35,183 bases of DNA from Clostridia bacterium (lineage in GTDB: Bacteria; Bacillota; Clostridia; UBA1381; UMGS1253), in the NCBI GenBank assembly GCA_045532715.1, contig JAZSGM010000163.1, positions 1 through 35,183 of the forward strand, in the 5' to 3' direction. This document shows, piece after piece, positions 6,803 through 14,006 of the stretch. The stretch's first letter is position 1. Each line of letters opens with the position of its first letter. The translations under genes were made by a program, and so were the position numbers. The notes beneath the pieces are model-generated. The model had not been told where the DNA came from. It was given only the letters and a program-made list of their open reading frames with translations, and made no database searches.

Positions 6803-9800
6803 ATGAAAATAAGATATGTGCGAATTCTCGGTATGGTGCTTGCACTGGTGATGGTGCTTTCAATGCTGCCGATGCAGGCATTTGCCATCAAGGTGGTCTT
6901 AAAGGATCTGGACAAGCCGGAATTGACCGAAGACAAGCTCGTGATTATGCGCGAGGACTTTGAAAAAGGTACGGTTGGCAAGAACATCACCACGGGCGGT
7001 ATGGGCTTTACGACCGGTGCTTACGGCGTGCAGGCGGCAATGAATATTACCGAGGAGGAAGGCGGCAATAAGTATTTAAAGGCTTATCACGGCGACCCTT
7101 CCGAGGATAAAACCCGTAACCCGCGCGTGGAAAGATACATTCCGACGGCGGGACTTACGCAATTTACGGTGGATTTTGATGTTATGTCGTCTATGGACGA
7201 AACGAATATGAGTGTCAGCATCATGAAGGCAAAGACCAACGAAAGTCTTGCGCCTTTAAAGACGCCGTACAAATTTGATAAGTGGACACACATTAAGATT
7301 GTTTGCGAGATTGAAAATCAGGAGGCTACGGCAACTGTATATGCAGATGGCAAGGAGGATAGCGTACATAGCTTCTCTATTGCGGGCATTGACAATATCG
7401 GTATCCGCTTTGCCAGCATTGTACAGCCGGATTCGAGCTGGGCGGCGATTGACAATGTGCTGATTACAACGACGAATCTGGATTTGGGTGGTATCGTCGG
7501 CTTGGATGGCGTGACCGTAAACTGGAATAAGCTGCCGGAATCTGATGTGCCGTCTACGGGCTTTTTGGATGTAATGAACCAACAGCATCCGCGCATTTAT
7601 GTCACCGATTGGGATGTAATCAAGCAAAAGATTGCGACGGACGAAAACTGCAAGGCTTGGTACGATCAGATTATCCGCCACGCGGACGCGCAGGTCGGTA
7701 CGCCGACGGTGGAATATTACAGAAATGCGCGTAACACCGTAAACGATGCGACAACGAATTTTAAGCGTTATATCATTCCGGTTGCGGCGGCATATTGCTT
7801 AACCGGGGAACAGAAATACTTAGATAAGGTATATCAGGACCTTGTAACGGCAGGTACATGGCCGGATTGGGGTCATGATGCTTACCTTTGTACGGCACAT
7901 ATGATGTTTGCCTACGGCGTGTGCTATGACTGGCTGTACAATGCTTTTACACCGCAGCAGCGTGAAAAGGTCATCGAAGCATGGATGAAGAACGGCTTTA
8001 CTGCGGCGGTGCAGGCATATGAAGGCTACGGCGTCGGCACGGGCTGGATTAACGCATCCAATAACTGGGGTATGGTTTGCCACGGCTCGAATATGGTTGC
8101 GGCAATTGCGATTGCAAACGACAAGCCGGAGCTTGCAAACTATATCTTAGCGCAGGGCGCAATGCGTATCCCGAAAACCTTTGATGAAATTTCGGCAGAC
8201 GGCGGCTATGCAGAAACGCTTGGCTACTGGGATTACGGTGTACGCCATCTCGTAAAGATTATGGCGGCGCTCGATTCTTCGGTTTTGCCGGGCAAGAGCA
8301 TCCCGAGTGTACTTGATTTCAAGGGTGTAACGGGCCTCAACAATTCCGGTGATTTTCCGATTTACTACAACGGTACAACCGGTGCATTTAACTTCGGTGA
8401 CGGTACGCTGGAAATTCAGCACACACCGATTATGTATTATCTGTCTACAAAGTACAACAAGCCGGAATACACATGGTATAACCTGGATATCACAACCCAT
8501 CCGAAGGCAAACTCGATTTCTGCGCAGGGGGCAGTACTTGCGCTGATGTGGTTTGACCCGAGCATGAACAAAGCGCCGGAGGCAGGCTTTAAGTTAGATA
8601 AATTCTATTCCTCGACGGAAAAGTACGGTACAAACGGTATTTCGATGCGTTCGTCGTTTGAGGACCCGGATGCGCTCTTTATCGCAGCGCACGCAGGTGA
8701 CGAAACCATGTCGCACTCCAACCTTGATGCCGGCGGTTTTGTGCTGGATTGGGCGGGTAAGCGCTGGGTATATATGTACGGCAGAAATACCCGCGGTATC
8801 ACGGATTGCTACGGCTGGCCGAATTACAATACAAAAACGGAAGAGGGCAGATATCAGTATTACATTACCCGTGGTGAAGCGAACAACACCTTCATTATTA
8901 ACCCTAAGCCGGGCAAGCCGGATATGTACTATCAGTATTTTTCCGAGGTTTCCAAGTATGAAGCCGGTGTGAATACTTCTTACGGCGTTATCAATATGAC
9001 ACCGACAAATGAGGATTACGAAGCTGCACAGCGTGGTATTATGCTCACAGGTAACCGCGATGTTGTTGTGGTGCAGGATGAAATTAAGGCAAAGGCACCC
9101 TCTGAGATTTACTGGTTTGTAAATACAGATGCTGAAATTACCATTGCAGAGGACGGCAAAAGTGCCCTTTGGGAAATGGAGGGCGATCGGATGCTTGTCC
9201 GTATTACCTCCGGCCCTGCAGATGCAAAGTTTGGCATTATGCCGACAGCGCCGCTGCCGACGAGCCCGGACCCGGACATTCAGCCGGATTTGGAAGGTCA
9301 TAAGATGTTCATTCATATGACCAATGTGACAGAAACGACTTTGACGGTGGAATATGTGCCGCTGAAGGAAGGCGAGGGGATCCCGGCGCCGCTGCCGGTG
9401 AAGGCAATTGCTGACTGGACAGTCGACAACGGCGCAGAAAAGACAACGAGTCAGAGCTTGAGCGGCGTAGTTGCGCTGAAGGTGGATAACCCGAACGCTT
9501 ACGCGAAGGGCGCAAAGACTTACGTAGATACTGCAAATCTTGACATCAAGCCGATTGTACAGAACGGCAGAACGCTTGTGCCGGTGCGCTTTATCTCCGA
9601 AAAGTTCGGCGCAAGTGTCGGTTGGGATGATATAACGCAGACCGTAACCGTAAAGACAAAGACACTGAATATCTCTTTGCAGATTGGTTCGACGCAGATG
9701 CTGGTCAACGGCGAAGCGGTAACGCTCGATGTACCGGCACAGACCATTGGCGGCAGAACACTGATTCCGCTGCGTGCGCTTGTAGAAGCACTCGGTAAGC

Positions 9801-10879
9801 AGGTGTTCTGGGATGACAGAGGTCTTATCTTAATCGGTAGTGCTGTGATGAACTACCCGGCAGAAACGATTGATAAGATTATTGATTTATTGGACATTCG
9901 TGTACAGCTTGACGGTCAGGAAATGAAATTCTTTGACAGCGAAGTGTACGAATACCATGTACAGATTGCCAAGGGTGCGGCTATGCCGACGGTATCCGTA
10001 ATTTCCGACAAGGAAGCGGTAGTTGCGCAAGGCAATCCGGCAACTGTAACTGTTGGCGATAAGACGTATACCATCAATTTTGTAGAAAATGCGTTTGAGG
10101 GCATTTTAGGCACCGGCTCCGAGGGCGTGCTTAAGCAGATGCAGTTTCAGGTTATCTATGAAGGGGGAACGGCAAATTACCAGACCTATCTGGACATCGC
10201 AAGTGCAAAAAGCTCGATTGACTGGAACGAAAAGTATGTGATGGGTGGTACCTATGACGGTATCATCAGCGATACAACCCAAAACCGCTGGTCGGCAGAT
10301 GGTGCCGGCAACTGGATTCTGTACGATCTGGGTGCAGAAAAGAATTTGCACTCGATTTGTATTGCCGGCTACAGAGCGCTCGTTCGTTCCTACGAATTTA
10401 AGATTGAAACCTCGAAGGACGGACAGAATTGGGAGACGGCGCACGAGGCGGCAAAGACCACCTATGGCGTAGACCATGATGTATACAAGCTCGGCGACAA
10501 GAGCGCACGCTATATTCGCATCACAGGTCTTTCGGCGACAAATACCAACTGGATGGGCATCAACGAAGTACGCATCTATGACAGTGCGCAAATGGAAGCC
10601 GATGACCAGAATGCTTGGTATCGCACCTTCTACGATGCGCAGATTAACGCAATGGCAGGCACGACGCAGCGGATTGATGTATTGGGCTTTACCAAGAGCG
10701 GTGCAGAATTCCCGCTTGAAATCACCGATGTGAAGCTTTCGAGCACCAAGCCGGAAATTGCAACCGTAGATGCAAACGGTCTTGTTACGTTGCATAAGGC
10801 GGGCAAGGCAGAAATCGTAGCGGAATATGAAATTCTGGGCGTTACGATTAAAGCGCGTATGGCGGTTACTGTAGAATAA
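6803..10879 (+). CDS. Secreted multi-domain heparinase II/III-superfamily lyase-like protein, paralog 2
   Basis: Same architecture as paralog 1. Signal peptide ends in AFA. Motifs HPRIY, NNWGMVCHG, DGGYAETLGYWDYG, HSNLDAGGFVLD. RBS AAGGAG. Confidence 0.85.
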   Translation: MKIRYVRILGMVLALVMVLSMLPMQAFAIKVVLKDLDKPELTEDKLVIMREDFEKGTVGKNITTGGMGFTTGAYGVQAAMNITEEEGGNKYLKAYHGDPSEDKTRNPRVERYIPTAGLTQFTVDFDVMSSMDETNMSVSIMKAKTNESLAPLKTPYKFDKWTHIKIVCEIENQEATATVYADGKEDSVHSFSIAGIDNIGIRFASIVQPDSSWAAIDNVLITTTNLDLGGIVGLDGVTVNWNKLPESDVPSTGFLDVMNQQHPRIYVTDWDVIKQKIATDENCKAWYDQIIRHADAQVGTPTVEYYRNARNTVNDATTNFKRYIIPVAAAYCLTGEQKYLDKVYQDLVTAGTWPDWGHDAYLCTAHMMFAYGVCYDWLYNAFTPQQREKVIEAWMKNGFTAAVQAYEGYGVGTGWINASNNWGMVCHGSNMVAAIAIANDKPELANYILAQGAMRIPKTFDEISADGGYAETLGYWDYGVRHLVKIMAALDSSVLPGKSIPSVLDFKGVTGLNNSGDFPIYYNGTTGAFNFGDGTLEIQHTPIMYYLSTKYNKPEYTWYNLDITTHPKANSISAQGAVLALMWFDPSMNKAPEAGFKLDKFYSSTEKYGTNGISMRSSFEDPDALFIAAHAGDETMSHSNLDAGGFVLDWAGKRWVYMYGRNTRGITDCYGWPNYNTKTEEGRYQYYITRGEANNTFIINPKPGKPDMYYQYFSEVSKYEAGVNTSYGVINMTPTNEDYEAAQRGIMLTGNRDVVVVQDEIKAKAPSEIYWFVNTDAEITIAEDGKSALWEMEGDRMLVRITSGPADAKFGIMPTAPLPTSPDPDIQPDLEGHKMFIHMTNVTETTLTVEYVPLKEGEGIPAPLPVKAIADWTVDNGAEKTTSQSLSGVVALKVDNPNAYAKGAKTYVDTANLDIKPIVQNGRTLVPVRFISEKFGASVGWDDITQTVTVKTKTLNISLQIGSTQMLVNGEAVTLDVPAQTIGGRTLIPLRALVEALGKQVFWDDRGLILIGSAVMNYPAETIDKIIDLLDIRVQLDGQEMKFFDSEVYEYHVQIAKGAAMPTVSVISDKEAVVAQGNPATVTVGDKTYTINFVENAFEGILGTGSEGVLKQMQFQVIYEGGTANYQTYLDIASAKSSIDWNEKYVMGGTYDGIISDTTQNRWSADGAGNWILYDLGAEKNLHSICIAGYRALVRSYEFKIETSKDGQNWETAHEAAKTTYGVDHDVYKLGDKSARYIRITGLSATNTNWMGINEVRIYDSAQMEADDQNAWYRTFYDAQINAMAGTTQRIDVLGFTKSGAEFPLEITDVKLSSTKPEIATVDANGLVTLHKAGKAEIVAEYEILGVTIKARMAVTVE

Positions 10880-10881
10880 AC

Positions 10882-10921
10882 AAAAAGGTCGCAGAATTAT
10901 TTTTGGTTCTGCGACTTTTTT
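10882..10921 (+). terminator. Intrinsic terminator after lyase 2
   Basis: GTCGCAGAA...TTCTGCGAC stem followed by TTTTTT, with an A tract upstream. Confidence 0.8.
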
Positions 10922-10922
10922 A

Positions 10923-10951
10923 TTGCTTTTTCAAGTGGATATTGCTATAAT
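10923..10951 (+). promoter_or_regulatory. Sigma-A-type promoter for the catalytic-only lyase
   Basis: TTGCTT (10923-10928), 17 nt, TATAAT (10946-10951), with TG extension. Confidence 0.7.
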
Positions 10952-10986
10952 GAAGGCAACTTAAATTCAAAACGGGAGTGATTGCG

Positions 10987-12882
10987 GTGAAGGCTTACAT
11001 TTCTGAAGATAAAACCAAAATTTTGTGGGATAAGTTTTGCGAAATCGAAACGGAAAAGAGCGGTATTACTTCGGTGATGCGCAAAACGCATCCGCGCATT
11101 TTAACCCGCGATTGGGGAGAAATCAAAGAAAAAATCAAAACAGATGTGCATATGCAGCATTGGTATGATGCCGTGATTGCAGCTGCGGAAAAGCTCGTGG
11201 ATGCGCCGCCGACAAAGTATTTTGTCAATATCCGAAATAACATCAACGATTGCTCTACCGAGTTTAAATATAATGTGATTCCGGTTGCGGCGGCATATTG
11301 CCTGACGGGGGATGTGCGCTACAAAAACCGCGTATGGTCCGAGCTTGAAAATGTGGGCAACTGGCCGTACTGGGGCTCAAATGCCTACTTGTGTACGGCG
11401 CATATTCTGTTCTCCTTTGCGCTTTGCTATGACTGGCTGTATAACGATTTTACCGCAGAAGAAAGAGCGCAGATTGTTGCCTGGACACGTGATCAGGGCT
11501 TTAACGAAGCCATTCTTGCCTATGAAGGTGTGGATGAAAACGGTTGGTGGAGACACGCCTACAACAACTGGAATAACGTGACAAACGGCTCCAATATCGT
11601 GGCGGCGCTTGCCTTTGCAGATGAGCTTCCTGAGGTGGCAGAGTATATTACAAAAAAAGCGGCAGAGGGACTGCCGTACAGCTTCGGCGAGCTGTCGGCG
11701 GACGGCTCATATGCCGAGCCGGTCGGCTACTGGGGCTATGCCATCGGGCATCAGGTCAAGGCGATGCACGCCCTGAACACGTCTTTGGCGGATGGCGAAA
11801 AACTGCCGGAATGCCTGGATTTTTCCAAGGTATCCGGCTTGGATAACACCTGCGATTTCCCGATTTACTATAACGGTACGTGCGGTGCGTTTAACTATGG
11901 TGACGGCGCGCTCGAAACGGTTTTGGTGCCGTGTATGTTCTGGCTTGCGGACTTTTACAACAAGCCGCAGTACACTTGGTATGCATCAGAATATATGGAC
12001 GATTGCGGCTGGAAGGAAGATTGCCTCGCCAAAAATGCGACTGAGGCGCTTTTGTGGTACAATCCGGTGCACGCGAAGGTGAAGGATGTAAAGCTACCGC
12101 TGGATAAGTTTTATACCTCGACGCGAAAGTACGGCGCAAACGGCATCTCGATGCGCTCTGCATGGTCTGAAGATGCGCTCGTAGTGCTTGCACACGCGGG
12201 CGACGGCACGGCGGCGCACGGGAATTTGGATGCCGGCGGCTTTATCCTGGATTGGAAGGGCAAGCGCTTTGTACATATGTATGGCAGAACGCCGGCAGGA
12301 CTTAAGGCAGGTACGCTTTATTCCTGGCCGAATTATCACAAGCGCGAGGAAAAGGATGCGCGCTTTATGTACTACCATGTGCGCGGCGAGGCAAACAATA
12401 CAATCATTGCAAATCCTGAAAAAGATATGCCGGATATGTACTATCAGTACTACGCACAGCTTGTAGAATCTGCCTCTGAAGCGGGCAGTGCCTACGGTGT
12501 GATTGATATGACAAGCACCAATCACGATTATGAAAATGCAAAGCGTACGATTGCGCTTACGGAAAATCGCAGTCGCGTTGTGATTACGGATAAAATTACG
12601 GCGAAAAAGCCGTCGGAATTTTATTGGTTTGCCAATACAACGGCGGAGATTACACTCTCCGAAGATAAAAGAAGTGCCATTTTGAAAATGGGTGAGGACG
12701 AAATGCTTGTACGCATCAAAAATGCGCCTGCCGATGCAGCGTTTGAGGTTGTGCCGGCGATTCCGCTTGAAACCTCGCCGCATCCGCCGCAACAGCCGGT
12801 CATTCCGGAAAACAAGCTGCGTATTCATATGGAGAACATACAAAAGCTGGATTTGTGCGTAGAATTTATTCCGCAGATATAA
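10987..12882 (+). CDS. Catalytic-module-only heparinase II/III-superfamily lyase-like protein, paralog 3 (no signal peptide, presumably cytoplasmic)
   Basis: GTG at 10987 lies 8 nt after a GGGAG RBS (ORF track start is 10978). Contains HPRIL, NNWNNVTNG, DGSYAEPVGYWGY, HGNLDAGGFILD and ends at LCVEFIPQI. All accessory modules are absent. Confidence 0.85.
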   Translation: MKAYISEDKTKILWDKFCEIETEKSGITSVMRKTHPRILTRDWGEIKEKIKTDVHMQHWYDAVIAAAEKLVDAPPTKYFVNIRNNINDCSTEFKYNVIPVAAAYCLTGDVRYKNRVWSELENVGNWPYWGSNAYLCTAHILFSFALCYDWLYNDFTAEERAQIVAWTRDQGFNEAILAYEGVDENGWWRHAYNNWNNVTNGSNIVAALAFADELPEVAEYITKKAAEGLPYSFGELSADGSYAEPVGYWGYAIGHQVKAMHALNTSLADGEKLPECLDFSKVSGLDNTCDFPIYYNGTCGAFNYGDGALETVLVPCMFWLADFYNKPQYTWYASEYMDDCGWKEDCLAKNATEALLWYNPVHAKVKDVKLPLDKFYTSTRKYGANGISMRSAWSEDALVVLAHAGDGTAAHGNLDAGGFILDWKGKRFVHMYGRTPAGLKAGTLYSWPNYHKREEKDARFMYYHVRGEANNTIIANPEKDMPDMYYQYYAQLVESASEAGSAYGVIDMTSTNHDYENAKRTIALTENRSRVVITDKITAKKPSEFYWFANTTAEITLSEDKRSAILKMGEDEMLVRIKNAPADAAFEVVPAIPLETSPHPPQQPVIPENKLRIHMENIQKLDLCVEFIPQI

Positions 12883-12889
12883 ATAAACG

Positions 12890-13195
12890 AAAAAGACCGT
12901 CAAAGCGCGTTATCCCAAGGGATACGCGCAGTGAAATTCGCCCTGAAGAGCGAGTGGTATACGCCTGTCGGCGTGTGATATATGTTCTGTCGAACATGTG
13001 ATATATTTCCTTGCAGGAAGTGTTATGGAAAAAAACCGTCTCACAGAGACGGCTTTTAATCATTTACATCCGATTTATCGGATATTTCACATTTGCGAAG
13101 CAAATATATCACTGCGAAGCAATATCACTTGCCGCATAGCGGCAAATATCACCGGTGGTTATCCATAGGGATAGCCACCATATGACGGTCTTTTT
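12890..13195. repeat. Inverted composite hairpin-array element (REP/BIME/MITE-like)
   Basis: Terminal inverted repeats AAAAAGACCGTCA (12890-12902) and TGACGGTCTTTTT (13183-13195). Left arm hairpins are separated by GTGATAT-like heptamers and right arm hairpins by the complementary ATATCAC. Confidence 0.8.
13029..13057. terminator. Central bidirectional terminator-like hairpin inside the element
   Basis: AAAAAAA-CCGTCTC-ACA-GAGACGG-CTTTT between the convergent lyase 3 and araC genes. Confidence 0.6.
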
Positions 13196-14006
13196 TTGTT
13201 TGCTGTTTGCGAAACTGCATGGGGCTTACGTCCATGACTGCCTTAAATCGCTTGCCGAAATAGGTTACATCGTCAAAACCGACTTGCGCGGCGATGACTG
13301 CAATGGCATCTGTGCTTTTCTTTAAAAGCATAGATGCTTTTTCTATGCGGTAGTCTGTAATGTAGTCAAGCACGCTTTTGCCGGTTGTCTTTTTGAAGCA
13401 GCGGCAGAAATAGCTTTCGTTTAAATGGCAAAGCGCAGCAAGCTTGCGCGTGGAAATTTTATCCGTGTAGTGCTTGTCGATATAGCTGAGTACGATATCC
13501 ATACGCTGTTCTTTTGCGGTGAGCTGCGCAGATTCCTTTTGCGAGTGCGTTAATGTATAATTGCGCAAAAGATGTGCCATCATCGCGTAGGCGTGGCTTT
13601 TGAGCATCATATCGCACCAGGGCTTGTTCGAGCAATTCTCTTCGTATAAGTTATAAATCGCCTGTTTAACGGTTTCGTCGTTTTGGATGTGCTTTTGAAT
13701 ATGAATGTTGTCGAAGGGAAGCTCTGCGAAAAAATCGGGATGGATGCGGATATAGTAATACGCTGTGCCGCCGGCAGACTCCATTGCGTGCAGCTCGCCT
13801 TTATTTATAACGACCAGATCGCCGGCGTGCACCTGGATTTTTGCATCGCTGCAATATAAGGTTGCTGCGCCGCTGCGGTAAAAAAGCAGCTCATAAAAAT
13901 CGTGTCGATGCGGTCTGGTGTACGTTTCTGTCGGGGAATGCTCAATATAAACGGAAAATTCTCCCGGTGTTCGCTCCTTGGGCGGCTGAAATATTGCTTC
14001 TTGCAT
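13149..14006 (-). CDS. AraC-family transcriptional regulator (cupin sensor + double HTH)
   Basis: N-terminal PHRHDFYELLF...GDLVVINKGELH cupin motif; C-terminal SYFCRCFKKTTG and IAAQVGFDDVTYFGKRFK...SPMQFRK. AGGAGG RBS. Confidence 0.95.
   Translation of the reverse strand: MQEAIFQPPKERTPGEFSVYIEHSPTETYTRPHRHDFYELLFYRSGAATLYCSDAKIQVHAGDLVVINKGELHAMESAGGTAYYYIRIHPDFFAELPFDNIHIQKHIQNDETVKQAIYNLYEENCSNKPWCDMMLKSHAYAMMAHLLRNYTLTHSQKESAQLTAKEQRMDIVLSYIDKHYTDKISTRKLAALCHLNESYFCRCFKKTTGKSVLDYITDYRIEKASMLLKKSTDAIAVIAAQVGFDDVTYFGKRFKAVMDVSPMQFRKQQTKKDRHMVAIPMDNHR

Follow-up and report, generated by a model that had tools for sequence, protein, structure and literature searches.

What is the tract of short, mutually different hairpins at positions 12,890 to 13,195 of contig JAZSGM010000163.1 (Clostridia bacterium, assembly GCA_045532715.1), and how did it come to lie between two convergent genes? 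The stretch of DNA that we analysed, referred to here as the window, comprises 35,183 nucleotides (nt). An earlier note on this DNA had described the tract as an array of conserved heptamers (hereafter words) separated by hairpins with variable stems and enclosed by 13-bp terminal inverted repeats, and had offered as candidates a non-autonomous element of the REP/RAYT type or a structured RNA. We find that it is one copy of a gene-less, multi-copy, non-autonomous mobile element of ~279 nt, inserted in the 3-nt loop of a bidirectional terminator of the host between the convergent genes, and that each of its two arms is a match to the Rfam motif Gut-1 (RF01706). Our overall interpretation, to which we assign a probability of roughly 0.75, is that of a mobile Gut-1 unit that resides in a host terminator, would bring a replacement terminator, and carries words that would be read by a four-helix-bundle (4HB) protein; within it, the identity of the element and its insertion into a terminator are the part that we consider highly probable. 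The window's own genome (G000) is a metagenome-assembled genome (MAG) of 327 contigs that is 84% complete, and together with five congeners (G001–G005) it forms the set of six genus genomes used below, in which C numbers denote contigs.

Searching the six genus genomes by BLASTN, we found copies of the element, 92–96% identical, at ~10 distinct insertion sites in four of the genomes, in agreement with the earlier suggestion of a repeated, mobile-looking element. Full copies are present in G000 (C304, C38, and C184, the latter two ~94% identical) and in three of the five congeners (G001:C400, G003:C9, G004:C47, and G004:C102); four more copies in G000 are cut by contig ends (C223, C213, C136, and C12), and a decayed copy lies on G004:C59. 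When the copies are aligned, similarity begins at ..AAGCGCG and stops at GCCACC(A/T)TA... Outside these limits, each of the six independent full copies has its own perfect inverted repeat of 9–13 bp, with a run of A on the left and a run of T on the right; for comparison, when 39,700 TA sites of G000 were sampled, just 206 (0.52%) had both arms of an inverted repeat of at least 7 bp at a distance of no more than 5 nt. In the window, the element, which we call family A, occupies 12905–13183 (+ strand). On its left lies one half of a bidirectional intrinsic terminator (12890–12904; A5 run, stem GACCGTC at 12895–12901, and A's of the loop) and on its right the other half (13184–13197; stem GACGGTC and T7 run). 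The perfect 13-nt inverted repeat 12890–12902/13183–13195, which had been taken for the terminal inverted repeats of the element, therefore consists of the two halves of the host terminator, and other copies split other terminators. These repeats are not ends of the element because empty sites keep an intact terminator and because every copy has different flanks.

The orthologous sites in relatives, whose comparison the earlier note had proposed, provided these empty alleles. At the site of the window (site 1), the orthologous gene end in G004:C142 (95% identical) is followed by an intact bidirectional terminator with a 3-nt loop, A5-GACCGTC-AAA-GACGGTC-T7, and an animal-gut metagenome contig (run X3, record 17) joins 12904 to 13184, exactly 279 nt being absent. 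At site 2 (G000:C38), the intact terminator in G004:C36 is what remains of the filled site once the element and one TA are removed, except for one single-nucleotide polymorphism, and different intact terminators occupy this place in G002, G003, and G005. At site 3 (G000:C184, filled also in G003 and G001), G004:C36 has an intact hairpin at ~184.3 kb, and at site 4 (G001:C400) a terminator with a diverged stem is found in G004:C75. No further empty sites were obtained from the genomes searched, in which the orthologues of G000:C223, G000:C213, G004:C47, G004:C59, and G004:C102 are rearranged or diverged. Two properties expected of a miniature inverted-repeat transposable element (MITE) in the broad sense were found, namely near-identical copies without coding capacity at unrelated sites, and filled and empty alleles with exact ends (sites 1–3).

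Further scans extended the count of copies little. An exact-pattern scan of genome contigs gave four loci, all in two genomes of the set, and the corresponding scan of metagenome contigs gave one locus (L139), a full copy with the right flank of site 3 and a left flank from another place, which either arose by recombination between two copies or is a chimera created at the repeat during assembly. BLASTN searches of phage and plasmid collections gave no match to the element. We also considered the high conservation of the element at site 3, where 278 of 281 positions are identical between G000 and G003 against 800 of 888 in the left flank, as a possible indication of function; over ~500 nt, however, the entire right flank is also 97–100% identical. 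The identity therefore reflects a recombination tract rather than selection on the element, and we dropped the argument.

The 279 nt have a symmetric anatomy. A left end hairpin (12905–12929, + strand; GCGCG-T-TATCCC/GGGATA-CGCGC), kept in all copies, and a right end hairpin (13154–13179, + strand; GGTGGTTATCC-ATAG-GGATAGCCACC) contain GTTATCC..GGGATA as a same-strand repeat. The left arm (12929–13009) is a Gut-1 motif in + sense, and a fifth word/hairpin unit extends it to 13026; the right arm (13068–13154, − strand) consists of a hairpin at 13068–13083 and a Gut-1 motif at 13079–13154 in − sense. Between the arms lies an internal bidirectional intrinsic terminator (13029–13057; A7, CCGTCTC-ACA-GAGACGG, CTTTT), kept in all copies, on which both arms converge because the left motif runs in + sense and the right one in − sense. 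The central hairpin itself (13036–13052) is terminator-like, with the A7 run before and CTTTT after it; the terminator scan called it on the + strand and not on the − strand, on which we infer that it would work as well, the A7 run giving a T7 tail. Left-arm words are GTGAAAT (12931), GTGGTAT (12954), GTGATAT (12975 and 12998), and GTGTTAT (13020), spaced by 23, 21, 23, and 22 nt, and reverse-complement words start at 13084, 13106, 13122, and 13146 in the right arm; successive words are separated by perfect hairpins, each of which is different. The coding capacity of the element is limited to short mechanical open reading frames (ORFs) of at most 65 aa. It is important to note that the boundaries are uncertain by 1–2 nt, and that the core would be 12904–13180 if a TA is duplicated upon insertion. 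Folding gave a minimum free energy (MFE) of −133.1 kcal/mol for the + strand and −136.5 kcal/mol for the − strand compared to ~−76 ± 5 kcal/mol for 100 dinucleotide shuffles (z = −12.3 on each strand), none of the shuffles being as stable. Words, hairpins, 13-bp repeat, and central hairpin are all where the earlier note had placed them, and the fold check that it had proposed came out in its favor on both strands. In two copies in the congener G001 (C75 and C136; L080 and L154), we observed an extra segment composed of GTGATAT, a long hairpin, and ATATCAC at the place of the loop of the internal terminator; this would be explained by a nested insertion or, in a MAG of 400 contigs, by a fork in the assembly.

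The tract had not been recognized as a member of a named family. In the Rfam scan, however, both arms scored above the gathering score of 50 bits as Gut-1 (54.6 bits for the left and 57.0 bits for the right arm, with model positions 1–77 covered and window-wide E-values of 6.5e-9 and 2.7e-8 for the two matches), and in the cmscan alignments the three hairpins of the Gut-1 motif are present, with A-U and U.G as closing pairs and with 3 nt between neighboring hairpins. Specifically, the last two letters of a word and the first two letters of the next word form the A-U and U.G pairs in the model, leaving a 3-nt linker, which is GAA, GGU, or GAU in the window copy. G000 contains 15 Gut-1 matches, 13 of which are above the cut-off and many of which lie at contig ends. 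To place these matches, we surveyed 61 related genomes, which are mutually akin so that the counts from them are not independent. Gut-1 is present in 30 of these, with 144 matches at 111 loci; at 33 of the loci a pair was detected, in each case convergent. Among the best Gut-1 locus of each relative (n = 29), at least 16 lie just 3′ of the end of a tRNA or tmRNA gene and its terminator, from which we conclude that the affinity for terminators is general. Gut-1 was listed as a likely non-coding RNA, not cis-regulatory, from the human gut only (Weinberg et al. 2010, Genome Biol 11:R31, PMC2864571, available main text). The full model above gathering score, the three hairpins, the short purine-rich linkers, the association with the gut, and the unexplained function are all shared with the motif as described in that text; there, however, it is a stand-alone RNA of the human gut, whereas here it is found in animal-gut Clostridia MAGs, is convergent when paired (33/33), has GAU, GGU, and GUU besides GAA as linkers, and is built into a mobile unit that also contains a terminator and end hairpins. 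Our literature search on Gut-1 and on 23S rRNA intervening-sequence proteins, which did not extend to the supplements of Weinberg et al. 2010 with their further discussion of Gut-1, returned no paper that ties Gut-1 to mobility, terminators, or 4HB genes and no later paper on its function.

Two further observations were made beside Gut-1 pairs in relatives. The terminators between the genes for tRNA-Tyr, tRNA-Leu(gag), and tRNA-Leu(taa) and the adjacent Gut-1 pairs (L016, L020, L021, and L032) have an identical 19-nt inner core, while the outer stem bases differ and compensate, a pattern that would be expected if the small hairpin itself was inserted into different terminator loops. Also, a conserved stretch of ~20 nt (..CCGAATGGTTTAGAT..) is found beside Gut-1 pairs in several genomes (L018, L023, L026, L031, and G000:C109:4165–4200); it matched no Rfam family at gathering score.

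How would a host tolerate such an insertion between two genes? The host terminator that is split by the element should be abolished, and the internal bidirectional terminator would take over for both convergent genes, with each neighboring transcript gaining one arm, in Gut-1 sense orientation, as a 3′ tail. On this model, insertion would be tolerated because the element brings a replacement bidirectional terminator, and both neighboring transcripts would still end. In G004, half-elements comprising an end hairpin, an arm, and the same terminator end genes on C78, C11, C91, and C92, and these are therefore consistent with a terminator role. Judged from sequence, we regard this role as reasonably likely.

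A candidate for the protein that recognizes the words is found in the 4HB family PF05635 (23S_rRNA_IVP, Avd-like), genes for which are present in 32 of the 61 relatives. Gut-1 and PF05635 occur together in 24 genomes, Gut-1 only in six, PF05635 only in eight, and neither in 23. Moreover, 19 of the 111 Gut-1 loci lie at most 600 nt from a PF05635 gene, with the array upstream of the gene in 17 of these. We also searched for mirrored arrays de novo, allowing any 7-mer with at least two copies followed by at least two reverse complements. An exact mirrored array was found just upstream of 19 of 32 PF05635 loci, with ~12 different words that include GCTAAAT, TCGATAT, GCGATAT, TGAATTG, ATGAAAT, GTGAAAT, and GTGATAT; as a control, 23 of 5000 random 430-nt windows of G000 contained a mirrored array, several of which are true arrays. 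Paralogous loci within a genome use different words: GCTAAAT (4+4 copies, C202:10775–10945) and TCGATAT (3+4 copies, C261:4890–5070) in G000, and GCTAAAT, GTGATAT, and ATGAAAT in G004. A further TCGATAT array (4+4 copies) was seen in G000 on C306 near 487–917. The eight pairs of 4HB proteins with the same word are 60–93% identical, compared to a median of 53% for the 163 pairs with different words, and the closest of the different-word pairs have near-identical words. Between G000:C202 and G004:C91, words and gene are conserved (82% DNA identity), and all four left-arm stems differ and are still palindromic.

The unit on G004:C102 with the word GTGATAT illustrates the arrangement. A terminator-like hairpin is followed by three GTGATAT units, three ATATCAC units, a near-consensus promoter, a gene for a protein of 116 aa, and a terminator; the protein belongs to TIGR02436/PF05635, and its closest solved structure is PDB 2rld (E = 8.5e-31). 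G004 carries copies of family A as well as this complete 4HB unit. The ~640-nt GTGATAT unit of G004 is found with 88% DNA identity in G050, a relative from a different bacterial family, which suggests that the unit has spread horizontally. The NCBIfam Avd model matches the array-linked 4HB proteins with E = 3.9e-4, below its cut-off.

Our working hypothesis is that in single-stranded form the hairpins would act as spacers, without a sequence requirement of their own, by which the 7-nt words are displayed, that the words would be the reading sites of the cognate 4HB protein, and that the window copy would be a non-autonomous satellite of 4HB units. We take the words to be reading sites because arrays directly precede 4HB genes, because the word changes with the protein lineage, and because a GTGATAT-type gene is present in a congener; that the 4HB protein may read the words is a tentative proposal to which we give somewhat less than even odds. 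More speculatively, arrays together with an Avd-like 4HB gene could constitute a so-far undescribed class of minimal hairpin-homing selfish elements, in which the 4HB protein is the only factor and is specific for the word, the window element is a gene-less satellite of the GTGATAT lineage, and the 23S rRNA intervening sequences with an ORF are another branch; we put this forward as an unlikely but consequential possibility.

For mobility, our model proposes that palindromic, hairpin-forming DNA is the target, that an enzyme places the element at the apex of the hairpin, and that insertion would most often leave TA on both sides, either as a 2-bp duplication or because the termini end in TA. 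TA is found directly outside AGCGCG.. at nine of ten left junctions, the window copy having AA, and directly after ..GCCACC(A/T) at all seven right junctions. Among the three informative sites, TA duplication is shown at one, site 2, which fits exactly. When we compared three models over the three empty sites (TA duplication, 279 nt without duplication, and 280 nt without duplication), each left 3–4 changes unexplained. A search for an autonomous partner with the same GCGCGTTATCCC.. and ..GGATAGCCACC ends gave none: BLASTN in the six genus genomes returned only copies of ~280 nt or shorter, and pattern scans of genome and metagenome contigs were likewise negative. We consider any particular mobilizing enzyme improbable.

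The alternative that survives best, although unlikely, is that the element is a MITE of the IS630/Tc1-mariner type, moved by cut-and-paste by a DDE transposase acting in trans, with duplication of TA and a preference for palindromic targets. Besides the junctions and the exact duplication at site 2, the position of TA at the center of the inferred loop in five of six full copies and the size and non-coding nature of the element fit this explanation. Against it, DDE_3 (PF13358) genes of the IS630 type were found in none of the six genus genomes, which are incomplete MAGs; as an inverted repeat, the two ends agree at only 8 of 13 positions, with only the inner TATCCC in common; and the empty allele of the window's site has no TA. 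RUP and Correia/NEMIS are bacterial MITEs of this TA-duplicating kind; they are short, non-coding, TA-flanked, and foldable, and carry transcription signals. The window element differs from them in that no IS630-type transposase was found, its terminal repeats are weak, and its preference for the hairpin apex is strict. Targeting by hairpin structure rather than sequence also has precedents: IS1397 and ISKpn1 home to the loops of REP sequences and group IIC introns to terminators. Their hairpin targeting is like that of the window element, but they encode their own transposase or reverse transcriptase (RT), whereas the window element encodes nothing.

Less probable still is that the element is of the REP/BIME/REPIN or PATE kind and that a Y1 HUH enzyme (RAYT or IS200/IS605 TnpA) moves it as a DNA single strand; the enzyme would read the end hairpins and insert the element into the loop of an extruded hairpin. 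On the side of such a mechanism, the end hairpins share their asymmetry and its strand, one hairpin having an unpaired T where the other has T.G, and, as in PATEs, each end of the element has a subterminal hairpin on that strand; a long target duplication is absent, and a hairpin loop is the target; the stems are near-perfect on both strands; and the loops on the non-word strand are mostly GAA, GCA, GGA, and GTA closed by C-G, e.g. GCGAAGC at 13094–13100, C-G-closed GNA triloops being, as general background, unusually stable in DNA. Y1_Tnp genes are present in all six genus genomes, but none of them adjoins an array, so that the RAYT or TnpA gene flanked by such arrays for which the earlier note had suggested looking was not found among them. 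The IS605-type element on G000:C126 (4800–6500), with a 130-aa TnpA and a 377-aa TnpB-like ORF, has ends unrelated to the arrays; the Y1 genes of ~250 aa in G001, G003, and G004 (L161, L162, and L169) are flanked by their own, different, short GC-rich direct repeats, with which they look like a separate REP/RAYT-like system; and Y1 genes of 170 aa have no arrays nearby. No fixed tetranucleotide is found in the left flank, which varies apart from TA/AA, and neither the fixed 5′ target word nor the TnpA element with matching ends of a PATE was found. The window element resembles REP, BIME, and REPIN sequences in being intergenic, multi-copy, hairpin-forming, and present as inverted pairs at gene 3′ ends. 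Their stems, however, are conserved, whereas here the linker is conserved and the stems vary within and between copies, and we found neither a conserved palindrome nor a RAYT gene flanked by repeats. Of the two candidates of the earlier note, mobilization of the REP/RAYT or IS200 type thus lacks support, and a structured RNA was a fair candidate.

Whether the arms act as folded single strands or as duplex bears on a further alternative, a protein-binding array on double-stranded DNA, operator- or centromere-like, whose reader would be the 4HB protein or a different factor and in which the hairpins would be incidental. Arrays do lie upstream of or overlap 4HB promoters (C202, G004:C102, and G050:C30), the arms are mirror images as in symmetric complexes, the spacing of 21–23 bp in the window copy is close to two helical turns, and among the inner stem pairs of 137 distinct units (675 Watson-Crick, 6 G-T, 14 A-C, and 39 other) there is no excess of G-U. 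Nevertheless, we regard this explanation as doubtful, to about the same degree as a Y1 mechanism. Stems that vary and are always paired favor single-stranded folding: the spacers of homologous units differ wholly and yet are palindromic, as in all four left-arm stems of G000:C202 and G004:C91, and intrastrand pairing is therefore needed. This also agrees with the earlier note's view that the hairpins are under selection for structure. In addition, covariation between unit types is seen in the long-range helices by which one arm is closed; this, too, favors single-stranded folding. We rejected helical phasing of the words on duplex DNA, given that word spacing is 15–25 bp in other copies. The earlier idea that left and right words pair into a long branched rod is not supported either: the MFE structure uses some such pairs, but the word variants of the window copy are unmatched in nested order and show no covariation in this register, so that a rod is thermodynamically possible at most.

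That the arms are instead two resident, convergent small RNA genes with their own promoters, a common terminator, and a trans-acting cellular function, not mobile, is very unlikely, because, although Gut-1 was classed as a likely non-coding RNA in Rfam and in the available text of Weinberg et al. 2010 (PMC2864571), both arms aim at the terminator, a −10-like TATAAG directly precedes the first word in several relatives, and word-strand loops are strongly biased in the 137 units (TTC 32, TTT 15, TGC 7, TCC 5, and TAC 5, corresponding to GAA, AAA, GCA, GGA, and GTA on the other strand), the promoter scan returned no promoter-like site in 12700–13400, presence and absence are polymorphic with exact ends, and the ~10 insertion sites are all at terminators. 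An RNA role of the arms is compatible with mobility, and it is only the resident-gene part that is contradicted.

Several observations weigh against our interpretation of the element as a mobile Gut-1 unit with words read by a 4HB protein. No 4HB gene lies near 92 of the 111 Gut-1 loci, none with the word GTGATAT was found in the window's own, 84% complete assembly, and the tracking of word and protein could be plain co-inheritance. In the 137 units, the inner stems have no RNA-type wobble excess on the word strand. In G004:C102 and G050:C30, the promoter (TTGAAA, 17 nt, TATAAT) follows the array, which is thus upstream of the 4HB promoter and outside its mRNA; this favors a role at the DNA level. 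With respect to the insertion mechanism, the TA-duplication reading fails at the window, where the empty loop is AAA without TA and the left junction is AA, site 3 is off by one base under this reading, and a model without duplication fits equally well; moreover, all empty alleles are from a lineage that is 5–9% diverged, and single-base boundaries are therefore unsafe. Finally, no mobilizing enzyme was found among the IS630-type, Y1/HUH, and RT genes of the six genus genomes; RVT_1 is present only in G003 and G004, in neither case linked to arrays. These absences are weak evidence because MAGs under-represent copies of insertion sequences.

Known systems with related proteins include 23S rRNA intervening sequences (IVSs). 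The IVS of Coxiella is an example of those with an S23p/PF05635 ORF (Warrier et al. 2016, PMC4990558, as far as the available text of that paper describes it). Like the window element, such an IVS is a selfish insertion in a host hairpin loop that is bracketed by the host stem and tied to the same 4HB protein family. Such an IVS sits in helix 25 or 45 of 23S rRNA together with a PF05635 ORF, whereas the window element lies between two convergent protein-coding ORFs, in an intrinsic terminator and without an ORF, although related complete units carry one. The array-linked proteins are also homologues of Avd of the diversity-generating retroelements (PF05635-like; Int J Mol Sci 2023, PMC10053308), but no RT is adjacent here, RVT_1 occurs in only two of the six genus genomes, and no template or variable repeats were seen. 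In a CRISPR survey (2023, PMC10910872), a figure legend includes "23S rRNA IVP" in its list of proteins for which a link to CRISPR arrays or adaptation modules is new, and word/hairpin arrays might be scored as CRISPR-like by repeat finders.

The two neighboring genes point toward the element. On its left, an ORF of 634 aa (10978–12882, + strand) is convergent, and its transcript would run into the left arm; it matched no Pfam or NCBIfam family at E ≤ 0.001, and a label as heparinase-like, which we considered for it, is therefore unsupported. This ORF and a 1358-aa ORF further upstream (together at 6803–12882) have a long similar N-terminal region in common. On the right, an AraC-family regulator (13149–14006, − strand; Pfam HTH_18, HTH_AraC, and AraC_binding) ends within the element: the last codons run through one half of the host terminator and on through the right end hairpin to a stop codon at 13149–13151. 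In G004:C142 (16500–21100; L056), an AraC paralogue (74% identical) and ~2.8 kb of sequence separate the empty terminator from the 97% identical AraC gene. G000 is without this ~2.8-kb segment with the AraC paralogue, and the junction (13149–13260 of the window) lies within a short stretch common to the 3′ ends of both paralogues. Because the junction is in this common 3′-end stretch, the AraC ORF of G000 is without its normal stop and extends by ~17 codons into the element.

What is new here is a behavior: a mobile unit without genes is inserted at the tip of terminator hairpins and carries a spare terminator with it; the motif itself was already catalogued. Gut-1 has been an orphan Rfam motif since 2010, known only from metagenomes, and this locus gives it a concrete natural history. 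The element appears to be one member of a broader family that spreads horizontally and in which word/hairpin arrays are coupled to Avd-like proteins, and Gut-1 is in this way tied to the Avd/23S-IVS 4HB family, the free-standing members of which are likewise without known function. In practical terms, such elements break MAG assemblies, with four copies here ending contigs, can extend neighboring ORFs as in the AraC gene, and can pass for small RNA genes or CRISPR-like arrays. The element lands with high precision in terminator hairpins, and its spare terminator should make insertion nearly harmless for the host.

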